From positions 248,001 through 312,000 of the forward strand of contig MU005968.1 in the NCBI GenBank assembly GCA_010093745.1: a stretch of DNA of 64,000 nt, in the 5' to 3' direction. Made by a program: the position numbers and the translations under genes. Shown here in pieces: positions 47,412-51,319 of this stretch (position 1 is its first letter; every line of letters begins with the position of its first letter). The notes under the pieces are model-generated. The model had not been told where the DNA came from. It saw only the letters and a list, made by a program, of their open reading frames with translations, and did no database searches. The DNA is from Piedraia hortae CBS 480.64. Lineage: Eukaryota.

Positions 47412-49388
47412 TTACTCGTTGTCATTACCATAACCCCTCGGCCCGGCCTTCATCACCGCATCCAGCAGCTTCTTGAAATTCTGTCGCTAGTCAGTTCATG
47501 GCTCGGTCCGCGCATGTCGTTTTTACATACCGGCGTGCCGAACCCAGTGACAGCGTCCCAGCCTGTGGTGGCTGGGAACCCGTCGGTACCACAACCAAAC
47601 GAGCTGCCAATCGTGACATCGGTAAACGTCTTGTACGTGGACTTGTACAGCATTGGATTAATGAATCCCAACGGAGGCTTTCCGGCCGCGATCAAGGCAT
47701 CGTTGACAAGCGTGAGAACACCCGCCATTGTCGGCGACGAGGCAGAAGTGCCGCCAATGGTCCTGACACGGCTGTTGTACACGATCACGTCGCGGTTTCT
47801 ACAATGTCAGACTCGTAGTCATGAACTGAGGCCATCACTTACCCTTGGGCTGCAACGTCTGGGTATCCACGACCAGTCTTGTTGTAGAGTCCATCATACT
47901 TGCCTCCCAAGCTCTTGATATAAGCGTCGATCGTGTTCTTCTGGTACGCCGGCGTGGGGAAATAGTTGGCAAAACCACCGCCAGAAGCGTATCGAGTGCT
48001 ATCTCAAAGTCAGTAGATTAAACTCAATCATCCACAAGTACTCACACGGCAGTCTCGGGGTTGAAGTTTGCAGTGCCGCCAACTGTCGTTACCCAAGGGC
48101 ATCCGGCCGGGAAGGCAGGCAAAAACATGTCCTGGCCATCCTTTGTGGATTTGCACGTTCCAGTCTTACCTACACCATAATCTCCAGACGAGAAAAGAAC
48201 GGTGATGCCTCGTGCGCCAAGCTGAGCAAGGCCTGCGCACACTCTGCGAGCATAAGACTCGGGCACTGTTTGTTCGTCATCGCCATACGATGTGCTGATG
48301 ACCTGGGGTAGGTTCCTTTGGGACAGGACATAGTTGAGCCAGACGAGATAGGGCTCGTTCGTATTGGTGGTAGTTGCAAGATCGGGAATGAAAGGCGGGC
48401 TACCACCAGTGTTCCAGGCATACAAGGGCACCGGCCAGGACATGCCGAGGACCCATTGGGCGTCCAAGTTGCCTTCGGCGTTCTTGCTCTGGTCGAGTTG
48501 GTCTTGTGTGTACGGACCCTGATTGTTAGACGCGTTGGCAATGATGGTGATGGGAAACTTGTAGCCGGCTTCACCTTCGGGGCGGAACTGGTGGAGAAAT
48601 TGCTTAGTGTCGTTGTAGTTGCTCGTCTCATTCAGGTAGTTTGTGATTCCAACCCTGTTCCTGTTGCCGGCTTTGGGCGTGTAGTCGATGGTGCCGTATA
48701 GGGTCCGCACACAATTTGGCGTCGTGAACGTGACATTGCAAAGTGCACTGGTATTCGCACCTGCGAGGTTGTAATATTCCTCGCCGTGCTTGGCAAACCA
48801 TTCCAACGAATGATCAGGCGCCTCGGGATCAAACGTAAGCGTATCCTCGTTGGCCTTGAGACGGAAAAACGAGGTCGTCGGCTGCACAACATCAATATGT
48901 TCGTGCAGGAAAATGGGCAGAGACCATTCGGGCGCGCGGTCAATTTCGCTGCCATCATGATGACGGAAAGTCTTGTATTTGGTCTTCAACAGCTCCTCGG
49001 CCTTAGAGACCGGGACTACGATGTGGATCCAATCCTTACTGGCCGAATGACTCGCGGGCGTCACGCCATTTTGGCTGAGCCACGACTCAACCTTCTCGAC
49101 GCTTTCGGCGGCCGGGGCCGTCATGGCATCGATCTCGGCCGCCGAGAGATGCTGTCCATAGCGAACGTGGTCGGGATCAGACACCTCCAGCAAATGCTTT
49201 TCTACAAGGCCCTGGTTGCGCTGCGTCAGGCCAATCTGGAGATGGATGAGCTGGTCCTTGTTGGCGGACCGAACCGCTGTCCAGGAGGCGGGGACAGGGT
49301 GGCTCTCCTTGACGTGATAGGGTGACGTTGGGAAAGCCAAGCCCCATGGGGCCAACAGAGCTAAAACGGCAGATGCTCTGCCTGCCAT
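47412..49388 (-). CDS. Secreted tripeptidyl-peptidase / sedolisin (S53); introns 47999-48045, 47799-47842, 47481-47530
   Basis: Signal peptide, activation prodomain (VSDPDHVRYGQHLS), EGNLD, STSYG, FSSGDYGV, GRGYPDVAAQG, GGTSASSP, WDAVTGFGTP. Confidence 0.93.
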
Positions 49389-49539
49389 CCTGACAACAAT
49401 AATGGTTTCAGCCCATCCCCTGAGCCTATATACATCTCGACCGCTGCACGTGATCTCGCTTAATCCGTTTAGCCCGTGGAATCTCAAGCGCCAAGGCTTG
49501 CCAATCTATGCACACTTTTGCAGCTGGACCAAGCCCAAA

Positions 49540-50359
49540 ATGTCACAGGTTCCTAGAATCGACAAGGTTTCTGCCCTATCTCCACACGAGGCGAAATGGA
49601 CCGAACTGAGGAAGATTGAATGGACCGATCAGAGCGGCCAACCCCGCGTCTGGGAGGCCGCGGCGCGTAAAACGAGGGGCTCTACCGGTGTCGATGCCGT
49701 CACCATTGCGCCTATCATCCGCCATCCGTCGCGGCCGGTATCTACCCTCATTATTCTACAGTACCGTCCGCCAGTTGGCGCTACATGTGTCGAGTTCCCC
49801 GCGGGCTTGATCGATGAGGGAGAAACTGCGCAACAGGCCGCAATTCGGGAACTCAAGGAAGAGACAGGATACGAGGGCAAGGTAGTCAACGTGACTCCTT
49901 CGTTGGCGAACCAATGTGGGCTAACCAACCGTCGTGTTCAGGTAATCGATCATACGCCCACGCTCGTGTCTGATCCAGGCCTGACAACAGCCAATTTGCA
50001 GGTACGTGATCCTCTCGTGATTTCTATTTCTGACGGGTCCGTAGTGCGTGACCATTGAAGTTCAACTCAAAGAGAGCGATGCCGAGCCCGAACAGCACCT
50101 GGATGATGGCGAATTTATTGAGCGGAGAATTGTCCCAGTCACCGAACTCTATGATACGCTTCAAGGTGAGTTTCTATCTGCCAACAATTTGCCCTTGCAT
50201 GCCAACATAACGAAGCTTTGGCCAGTGATAAGGACAAGATAATCGATGCTCGGTCAGTTCACCCCTCTGGCAAAACGCCCGGCATGTCAATGCTGACAAA
50301 ACAGCAGACTGTTCCACTGGGCGCTTGGTTTGAAGTGGAGTTCCACCTTGCTTAGCTAA
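49540..50359 (+). CDS. YSA1: Nudix ADP-ribose pyrophosphatase (Ysa1/NUDT5 type); introns 49882-49941 plus 50002-50044 (or one alternative intron 49942-50044), 50166-50215, 50253-50307
   Basis: QYRPPVGATCVEFPAG, Nudix box GLIDEGETAQQAAIRELKEETGY, SDPGLT, QHLDDGEFI, IDARLFHWALG. Confidence 0.88.
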
Positions 50360-51319
50360 CTGATTCAAGCGCTGGCTTGTGAAGGCTACATTCCAGACAT
50401 TCACGTACAGTTCACCGCCGCCGGCTGGCGTTCGGCTTTTGCCCTGCGCGGAGGATCGGCACTACATGATGCACCCCTTGCGGCGCGTTCCGCTTGACAC
50501 GTACTCCTTCGGTCGTCACCTGATTAAGGACTTGTCGCATTCATGATTACGAGCATCGGATGGCCGACCCGAGTGGTTGAGCAACCACATGGCGGGCCAC
50601 TTGCGCCTATCGTTCAGAACACGCCGTGGCTACGGCATCCCACTTTTGGCGATTATGACGTTCCTGTGGACGTTTGCAACGGTCGGTAGTGCGGCCATGT
50701 ATGTCATCCTCGATGCTTCGGAGCCGCCTCTTTGTATCAATCTGCCCGTCGCATAAGCCTAACCCTAGATTCCATGACCCCGCATTGCTAGCGCAAACGG
50801 TTTGGTCTTGGCACACCTCTTTTCTCGTCATTTTGAAATGTTTTTTTTTTAATTTTTCACGCGCCTCCTTGCTGTATCGAGAACCATCGCCGTCTAGGCG
50901 TGCTCAGCAGGATGTACAGTGTTTCTGCGTGACAGCTTAGTTGTCTGCCGTATCATCGCCAGTCTTTGCAAAGGCTTGGATTGATATTTTGCCCTTGGAC
51001 AATCAAGCTAATTTCCTCATTGCTGGACACTGAGATGATGTTCAGGATCGAATAAGTAATCATCTTCGATACCCAGGTCTATGCTACCTGAAGCCATGCC
51101 GAGAAGGTATACAAGGTCTTGAGGAACCCACTCAATGAGATCGTGGTCGTTCGCATGTTCAATGTTAACCAACATGGCCACCCAATTTTTTTGGTATTCC
51201 AAGGATCAAGACCCCTTCCACCTAAACCTGACGAACTTTCCACCGAGCTGTTCACCAGGCTCAGGGACGTCAATCAACTGAACATTCAACGTCAGGGCGG
51301 TGCCGTCCCGAAAGACGGA

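Follow-up and report, generated by a model that had tools for sequence, protein, structure and literature searches.

Can one 60-nucleotide (60-nt) stretch of a gene be at once a complete intron and an alternative coding exon? The question is raised by the window analysed here, a 64,000-nt stretch of the genome of the fungus Piedraia hortae CBS 480.64 (contig MU005968.1, positions 248,001 to 312,000), in which a gene for a predicted ADP-ribose pyrophosphatase carries two adjoining 60-nt segments, referred to below as segment 1 and segment 2. An earlier note on this DNA had proposed that the two are spliced in a mutually exclusive manner. We find that segment 1 is removed as an intron in the mRNA observed in Piedraia hortae, and that relatives conserve it at the level of its peptide. 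On balance we favour the reading that segment 1 is an alternative exon of ancient duplicate origin that serves as an intron as well, with the case for an isoform built on it coming from the relatives. The parts of the gene, in window positions, are the following; the "spliced contig" and the protein model P0002 are introduced in the text.

49540 to 49881, plus strand: exon 1 of the NUDT5/YSA1-type ADP-ribose pyrophosphatase gene; 114 codons (MSQVP...EETGYEGK), last codon AAG, with the Nudix box GLIDEGETAQQAAIRELKEETGY; covered by the spliced contig without mismatch
49882 to 49941, plus strand: segment 1; 60 nt, phase 0, open, peptide VVNVTPSLANQCGLTNRRVQ; removed as a GT...AG intron in the observed mRNA, putative alternative coding exon
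49939 to 49947, plus strand: segment junction CAG/GTAATC; used as an acceptor in the spliced contig, predicted to serve also as a donor (D2)
49942 to 50001, plus strand: segment 2; 60 nt, the canonical 20 codons VIDHTPTLVSDPGLTTANLQ; present in the spliced contig and in P0002; equivalent to I123-H142 of human NUDT5, including the DPG motif
50002 to 50044, plus strand: 43-nt intron GTACGT...CTGAC...TAG with GT...AG ends, absent from the spliced contig
50045 to 50165, plus strand: exon (CVTIEVQLKESDAEPEQHLDDGEFIERRIVPVTELYDTLQ...), a piece of the spliced contig
50166 to 50215, plus strand: 50-nt intron GTGAGT...AG, skipped by the spliced contig
50216 to 50252, plus strand: 37-nt exon (...ALASDKDKIIDA...), a piece of the spliced contig
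50253 to 50307, plus strand: 55-nt intron GTCAGT...CAGCAG, skipped by the spliced contig, with the second AG used
50308 to 50359, plus strand: last exon, stop codon TAA at 50357-50359; a piece of the spliced contig and the C-terminus of P0002

A canonical enzyme and a duplicated segment

The gene product is predicted to be an ADP-ribose pyrophosphatase of the NUDT5/YSA1 type. Exon 1 contains a Nudix box of the form GX5EX7REUXEEXGU, and the product matches the Pfam family PF00293 (NUDIX; E 7.5e-14, 52.3 bits versus a cut-off of 21.1). The best database match, identical across all 114 residues of exon 1 (100%), is P0002, a protein of Piedraia hortae CBS 480.64 whose model, derived from the Joint Genome Institute (JGI), omits segment 1 and keeps segment 2. 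P0002 in turn aligns with human NUDT5 chains (PDB 3bm4/2dsc; E 3.5e-41, residues 62-245 against 24-207) with a single one-residue gap, located outside segment 2, and because the alignment runs ungapped through segment 2 we take that segment to be the canonical sequence; yeast Ysa1p (P0137) is a more distant homologue. Removal of segment 1 restores a frame collinear with NUDT5, and we know of no alternative version of the segment 2 stretch for either NUDT5 or Ysa1, the literature searches behind this being those on exclusive exons in fungi, Ascomycota and Zymoseptoria. A proline about 16 residues after the Nudix-box glycine is a signature of ADP-ribose pyrophosphatases; with segment 2 in place a Pro stands at +16, and with the window's segment 1 a Cys stands there. 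An intron at the position of the 43-nt intron is found also in relatives that lack segment 1 (L048, L063).

The two segments are both in phase 0 and free of stop codons, and they share 8 of 20 amino acids and 28 of 60 nucleotides, with 9, 13 and 6 of the nucleotide identities at codon positions 1, 2 and 3. When all 64,737 stop-free 20-mers from the six frames of the window are scored against segment 2, only two of them, segment 1 and of course segment 2, reach a BLOSUM62 score of 40; in the DNA comparison, at least 28 identities occur in 38 of 127,880 ungapped 60-mers of the window. The likeness is thus greater than chance, and the segments are supported as true homologues by duplication. The description of the pair in the earlier note (coordinates, sequences, phase, open frames and 8 of 20 identities) proved accurate throughout: the shared T, P, L, G, L and T residues are indeed spelled with different codons in the two copies, the Gly-Leu-Thr codons do give a branch-like motif (CTAAC/CTGAC), and the proposed origin by exon duplication gains from a protein-level score that no other 20-mer in the window matches. 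Segment 1 also carries a donor (D1, AAG/GTAGTC), the sequence GCTAAC (branch-like CTAAC) 17 nt before its end, and a CAG acceptor; segment 2 contains CCTGAC and likewise ends in CAG.

Splicing in Piedraia hortae

In the public run X1, 64% of the gene's sampled words are present; the run is kept as contigs, its labelling as RNA is a guess, and we aligned its contigs to positions 49300-50700. One contig of 5,500 nt matches with zero mismatches and lacks 49882-49941 (60 nt), 50002-50044 (43 nt), 50166-50215 (50 nt) and 50253-50307 (55 nt), all of them with GT...AG ends. Lacking four introns, this contig must derive from spliced RNA, and since 49882-49941 is among the stretches removed, segment 1 is taken out as an intron and the prevailing message is isoform A, the form without segment 1 and the 43-nt intron that had been predicted from the letters and whose skips are reproduced here exactly. 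The companion prediction fared differently: for isoform B, in which segment 1 is kept and 49942-50044 removed, no RNA was found in Piedraia hortae or in any relative. A segment-1 isoform in this organism may at best be minor or conditional and may have been lost, and we put the existence of a functional one at close to, and if anything slightly under, an even chance.

The mechanism that we envisage begins with an old event in which the last 60 nt of exon 1 were duplicated in tandem; segments 1 and 2 would descend from it, and it would be common to Capnodiales, Cladosporiales and Mycosphaerellales. In the observed route, the donor D1 (49882) is joined to the acceptor at 49941 and the donor D3 (50002) to the acceptor at 50044, which gives the canonical segment 2 enzyme. 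In the proposed second route, D1 would go unused and D2 (49942) would pair with the acceptor at 50044, so that 103 nt would be removed and the resulting enzyme would carry segment 1, an altered 20-residue stretch beside the Nudix helix with Gln in place of Asp before Pro-Gly and several neighbouring changes. Depending on the isoform, the CAG/GTA junction would act as an acceptor or as a donor.

Segment 1 is conserved as a peptide in relatives

To sample relatives, we scanned metagenome contigs with patterns taken from exon 1 only, hence independently of the state of segment 1, and obtained 79 loci, 70 of which include the end of exon 1. Segment 1 is present in 31 of these 70 informative loci and is open in all 31. 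A protein search with a read-through query consisting of exon 1 and both segments also brought up many relatives with the two segments open. Named carriers among gene models and read-through open reading frames (ORFs) are Recurvomyces, Friedmanniomyces, Hortaea, Cryoendolithus, Meristemomyces, Coniosporium uncinatum and Cladosporium fusiforme; further carriers are a lichen-associated metagenome-assembled genome, a record filed under Quercus suber, and an ORF whose exon 1 is 100% identical across 117 residues to Zymoseptoria tritici. The taxon labels of unnamed sequences are those of their nearest named matches. Piedraia belongs to Capnodiales, Cladosporium to Cladosporiales and Zymoseptoria to Mycosphaerellales, all three within Dothideomycetes.

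The segment 1 peptides have a signature of their own. Across 35 distinct peptides, Val at position 1 and Gly at position 13 occur in 35 of 35 and Pro at position 12 in 33; position 2 is Cys, Ser or Arg in 34; and position 20 is Gln in 31, Lys in 3 (both have codons ending in AG) and Val once, in a Cladosporium form. Position 11 separates the two families, being Gln in all 35 segment 1 peptides versus Asp (81 of 88) or Asn (7 of 88) in segment 2. From segment 2 to segment 1, Asp consistently becomes Gln, Val becomes Ser, Ile becomes Leu and, often, Leu becomes Met; the structural positions S5, P6, P12, G13 and T15 are conserved in both. The window's own segment 1 keeps six of the seven invariant or near-invariant positions (V1, Q11, G13, T15, N16 and Q20). 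The suggestion, made from the window alone, that replacement of Pro by Cys adds redox sensitivity does not extend to the family: the Cys is peculiar to the window's organism, and the family-wide change is Gln for Asp one residue earlier. The translated intron after segment 2 in read-through ORFs cannot be aligned and soon runs into stops.

Substitution patterns point to translation of this peptide. In 18 Cladosporium-like loci (15 of them distinct as DNA, drawn from a small number of sampling campaigns), the variable sites of segment 1 fall at codon positions 1, 2 and 3 in the numbers 1, 0 and 10, and the ratio of nonsynonymous to synonymous diversity (pN/pS), computed here and below over non-independent pairs, is 0.013 in segment 1, 0.013 in segment 2 and 0.019 in exon 1. 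Synonymous diversity in segment 1 is 0.22 as against 0.45 and 0.42 in segment 2 and exon 1 (e.g., L014:1702-1761), about half, which fits a superposition of splice signals (the CTAAC branch site and the GTGAGC start) on the codons. The intron before segment 1 varies from 56 to 96 nt in these loci. In three close pairs that share the window's layout (L004/L005, L006/L008 and L002/L003), segment 1 shows 11 synonymous changes and 1 nonsynonymous change where random expectation is 23% synonymous (binomial P = 8e-7); in the same pairs the intron after segment 2 is identical at 40/62, 54/91 and 50/60 positions. The sole length variant of segment 1 contains exactly one extra codon (L002, L003). Segment 1 is, by these patterns, very likely translated in relatives of both the abutting and the Cladosporium-like layouts, the window's own lineage being one that cannot be separated in the comparison.

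The protein-level constraint that the earlier note had proposed for both copies is therefore established for segment 1 in relatives, and the alignment of orthologous loci that it had called for gives a conserved length and frame across three orders with changes that are almost all synonymous. The note had also named two signs that together would speak for an ordinary intron: a single splice form, and orthologues in which segment 1 drifts as introns do. A single splice form is indeed what run X1 shows; the drift is not seen, segment 1 being instead open and conserved.

Three layouts and the evidence for either-or use

Relatives arrange the twin segments in three ways. Type I, the window's layout (10 loci), has exon 1, segment 1 and segment 2 abutting. 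In type II (19 Cladosporium-like loci and L066), an intron of 56-96 nt precedes segment 1, which is followed by a GTACGT donor, a spacer ending in TAG, segment 2 and the usual intron; the spacer measures 16-23 nt in 19 of the 19 loci and 4 nt (GTAG) in L066. Type III, represented by L053, has a 40-nt segment 1a after exon 1 and, beyond a spacer of 36 nt, a 40-nt segment 2a; a shared micro-exon of 20 nt comes next, set between an intron of 54 nt and one of 62 nt, and exon 3 closes the series.

In type II, 19 of 19 loci use GCT for the Ala near the end of segment 1, a codon that forms a CTAAC or CTAAT 23-30 nt before the segment 2 acceptor, which in most loci is the only such motif in reach. Because this branch motif lies inside segment 1, upstream of the segment's own GTACGT donor, the spacer cannot be removed on its own, and if it is retained the result is a frameshift or, in L014, an in-frame stop. 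L053 reaches the same end by other means: either 40-nt unit alone is in frame, and both or neither give frameshifts with stops. Its split codons also restore the residue typical of each segment family, A/TG giving Met after segment 1a and T/TG giving Leu after segment 2a. The acceptor before segment 1 is in use in at least one case, as in the transcript-like L032 all five introns of its genomic relatives are missing and exon 1 runs straight into segment 1.

In type I, the evidence lies in the codons at the segment boundaries. Segment 2 opens with GTA in 10 of 10 rows (9 distinct, L007 being equal to L004; 6 lineages), whereas GTA accounts for 7 of 101 other Val codons of the same genes and for 0 of 19 at the start of segment 2 in type II, where the spacer holds the donor. 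Such a conserved GTA is what a CAG/GTA donor at the segment boundary would require. Segment 1 of the type I loci with DNA begins GTGTGT, GTTTGT, GTGAGC or GTGAGG, which places a G at +5 of D1, so that the start of segment 1, through its position-2 Cys, Ser or Arg codon, makes a good donor as well. In the window, D2 (CAG/GTAATC, 49942) has seven contiguous matches to CAG/GTRAGT, the best among the abutting loci, and D1 has 5 of 9, the weakest of the set; despite the higher consensus match of D2, the contig shows D1 in use. Folding of the RNA of 49862-50064 gave no sign of a structure-based selector (-60 kcal/mol, z = -0.07, with 82 of 200 shuffles folding as well).

The claim of mutual exclusivity thus stands in one part and not in the other: the relatives' layouts make sense only as exclusive exons, and the window's abutting layout enforces nothing. 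Judged from architecture, exclusivity appears well supported in relatives and is unproven in Piedraia hortae.

L066:246-431, grouped above with type II, has an intermediate arrangement, with a 61-nt intron before segment 1 and 4 nt between the segments (nearest named match Cryoendolithus, 90%). In P0033, encoded on a 7,333-nt contig (nearest named match Baudoinia, 88%), the open segment 1 is followed by VSRCWIARRRLSVIPG, which resembles an out-of-frame segment 2 and suggests a further layout, with a spacer of a few bases between the twins and no intron before segment 1.

Protein fold and ligand pocket

Where in the enzyme would the two versions differ? In a docking study, the ligand contacts listed for NUDT5 in its table 2 include Met132, Cys139 and Ile141 from one chain together with Pro134 and Leu136 from the second (PMC12081488). 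All five residues lie within the stretch aligned to segment 2, and the consistent differences between segments 1 and 2 fall in this same stretch. NUDT5 Asp133, Gly135 and their neighbours find no mention in PMC3203587 or PMC5772648.

An AlphaFold2 model of P0032, which has segment 1 only, has a mean predicted local distance difference test (pLDDT) score of 83, with successive 10-residue blocks over segment 1 at 95, 78 and 91. In a model of P0011, which has both segments, residues 116-135, essentially segment 1, fall below 50, with lowered confidence over segment 2 as well. These models would weakly suggest one segment per fold, with few alignment rows containing both segments.

Weighing the explanations

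We hold it very probable that the clade has a true alternative exon, and probable, with rather less assurance, that segment 1 is used in place of segment 2. The most complete version of this reading is tentative, its parts jointly falling somewhat short of an even chance: a conserved either-or switch in three Dothideomycete orders, an abutting alternative exon that is itself a complete 60-nt intron, a boundary that is both acceptor and donor, three layouts as successive solutions to the same problem, and two enzymes that differ in a pocket loop (Asp-Pro-Gly versus Gln-Pro-Gly) and hence in substrate preference. Several observations weigh against a segment-1 isoform, in the window above all. 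No spliced contig with segment 1 only was found among the 79 metagenome loci, and targeted searches for a junction from segment 1 to exon 3 (queries P0049 and P0032; 32 and 52 candidates) returned only NCBI gene models. No contig of run X1 at the locus retains segment 1 or carries it alone, although contigs drop rare variants and may have missed a minor form. P0110, from a 905-nt contig, lacks both segments, and L032 retains, beyond its informative junction, the 16-nt spacer and segment 2, with a 2-nt shift at an upstream junction; this double inclusion and the shift make it an unproductive RNA or an assembly of several. In the window's layout there is no spacer, both segments or neither stay in frame, and exclusivity is unenforced; because nothing in the abutting layout forbids both or neither, the balance must rest on the relative use of D1. 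The window's D1 lacks the G at +5 owing to the Val at position 2 of segment 1; D2 also lacks this G, which every D1 and D3 of the relatives has. The window's segment 1 is the only one of 35 peptides with Val at that position. At position 12 it is one of two among the 35 that lack Pro. When all type I sequences are taken together with the window, pN/pS is 0.44 in segment 1 versus 0.14 in segment 2, and the window differs from relatives in segment 1 by about 12 synonymous and 15 nonsynonymous changes, a count in which the Piedraia branch is not separable.

These points bear most directly on the alternative that the window's segment 1 is a relic, that is, that the clade had or has an alternative exon and that in Piedraia the segment is now a constitutive 60-nt intron whose coding capacity is left over. 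Isoform A is the only form seen and the P0002 model agrees with it; two near-invariant features are broken (Pro12 to Cys, and Val at position 2); and about 15 of about 27 differences from each relative are nonsynonymous. Yet segment 1 is still exactly 60 nt, open, and true to six of seven family positions, the CAG/GTAA junction is kept with the best D2 match among the abutting loci, and a pure intron would be expected to retain a strong donor, whereas the window's D1 is the weakest (5 of 9). The missing isoform B proves nothing here, as rare variants are dropped from contigs. We consider the relic rather unlikely, though a real contender. It is quite improbable that the segment is an exitron, or retained in-frame intron, with an alternative product that holds both segments and gains 20 residues in place of an either-or choice. 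Such retention would be in frame and stop-free in the abutting layout, six NCBI models keep both segments, and passages of a survey of fungal splicing name intron retention as the commonest form of alternative splicing, with exclusive exons "almost absent" (PMC6176087). Against this stands the outcome in spacer-type loci, where joint inclusion breaks the frame or meets stops, and in L053, where both or neither give frameshifts, so that the conserved peptide cannot serve a both-segments protein there. Segment 2 begins with the rare GTA codon only in loci that need a donor at that site, segment 1 conserves the structural positions of segment 2 as expected for the same place in the fold, and none of the transcript-like contigs found carries the two segments together in frame; the pLDDT below 50 over segment 1 in the both-segments model points weakly the same way, given the few alignment rows with both.

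An ordinary intron, like the neighbouring exon by chance or as a by-product of splice signals, is scarcely credible. Segment 1 is spliced out and its Gly-Leu-Thr codons spell a branch-like motif, as such an account would have it; it is contradicted by a protein-level likeness that no other of 64,737 20-mers reaches, by the constancy of length, frame and peptide through three orders in which neighbouring introns cannot be aligned and contain stops, and by substitutions that are overwhelmingly synonymous.

Relation to known systems

Passages of PMC3228551 give exon length, splice sites, conservation of reading frame and exon homology as criteria for predicting mutually exclusive exons. As in the mutually exclusive exons of animals and plants, the window's pair is adjacent, homologous, of equal length and in the same phase, and both members are constrained in relatives, which show two classical modes of enforcement: a donor downstream of the branch site (the 16-23-nt spacer) and frame incompatibility (the two 40-nt exons). 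The window departs from that class in that its first unit has no flanking introns or spacer and is itself a complete intron, exclusivity is unenforced, and the mRNA seen is segment-2-only, with no segment-1-only mRNA observed. In the relevant statements of the fungal survey, mutually exclusive exons are almost absent (<0.2%) and may lack relevance in fungi (PMC6176087). If true, an exclusive pair under purifying selection in three orders, with the wheat pathogen Zymoseptoria tritici and the ubiquitous Cladosporium among its carriers, would clearly run counter to that picture. Our literature searches on exclusive exons in fungi, Ascomycota and Zymoseptoria gave no description of this locus.

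The locus also bears on the origin of introns. A potato RdRp gene is reportedly a case of intron birth by tandem duplication. The birth of introns by tandem duplication of an AGGT-bounded exon stretch is described in passages of Hellsten et al. 2011 (PMC3265369). Segment 1 is likewise a copy of the adjoining exon with AG/GT at both ends, is spliced, and restores the ancestral frame by its removal. What those cases do not describe is a duplicate that, like this one, has escaped decay to neutral intron sequence and remains open, fixed in length and constrained in its amino acids across three orders. The abutting layout joins this idea with that of exclusive exons arising from exon duplication, the two being usually kept separate, and makes segment 1 a sequence that meets intron signals and protein needs at once. 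The three layouts would, if this is true, record how duplication of an AG/GT exon segment becomes an intron, an alternative exon or both.

Exitrons are protein-coding introns internal to exons, usually a multiple of three in length. Segment 1 resembles them in lying within an open exon, in its length, in its coding-type conservation and in being spliced out; it differs in being a paralogue of the next 60 nt and in that related layouts bar in-frame coexistence, which makes for replacement in place of retention. AG/GT sites of dual specificity, usable as acceptor or donor, were reportedly described by Zhang and co-workers in 2007. The CAG/GTA at 49939-49944 is an acceptor by RNA, and its use as a donor is suggested by codon conservation alone. 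As for the enzymes themselves, the gene shares full-length homology with NUDT5/Ysa1, with the Nudix box followed by the S-P-x4-D-P-G of segment 2, and the segment 1 version has Gln for Asp. If the two enzymes differ in specificity, the switch would provide a point of access to the housekeeping of ADP-ribose and nucleotide sugars in stress-tolerant black fungi.

Gene models and further observations

Public models for this one locus type disagree in four ways, with consequences for annotation:

P0005, P0006, P0011, P0017, P0019 and P0141 (NCBI): both segments
P0032, P0034, P0037, P0049 and P0099 (NCBI, unverified): segment 1 only, the sole proteins of this kind
P0002 and P0058: segment 2 only
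P0081, P0105 and P0116: neither segment

Hortaea werneckii alone is represented by three versions (P0011, P0034 and P0055). Segment-2-only forms are also found in short transcript-like contigs (P0041, P0050 and P0055) and in the spliced contigs L009, L011 and L012.

GC-AG introns (donors CAG/GCAAGT and AAG/GCATGT) occur after segment 2 in L004, L005 and L007 and before segment 1 in L050, and the model P0006 (Friedmanniomyces endolithicus) runs straight into such a GC intron. At the 3' end of the window's gene lies a tandem CAGCAG acceptor (50299-50310): the contig takes the second AG, and P0002 reads ...DARRLFHW..., with one extra Arg, as if the first AG (50303-50304) were used.

At the 5' end, P0002 begins at an upstream ATG at 49402, which adds 46 residues (49402-49539); relatives start at the equivalent of 49540 or bear short Arg-rich N-terminal extensions (e.g., P0003, P0009, P0014 and P0025), and these extensions might be a targeting presequence reached through an alternative start. 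About 35 nt upstream of the start of the Nudix gene, an open frame of 487 codons lies on the minus strand at 48042-49505.

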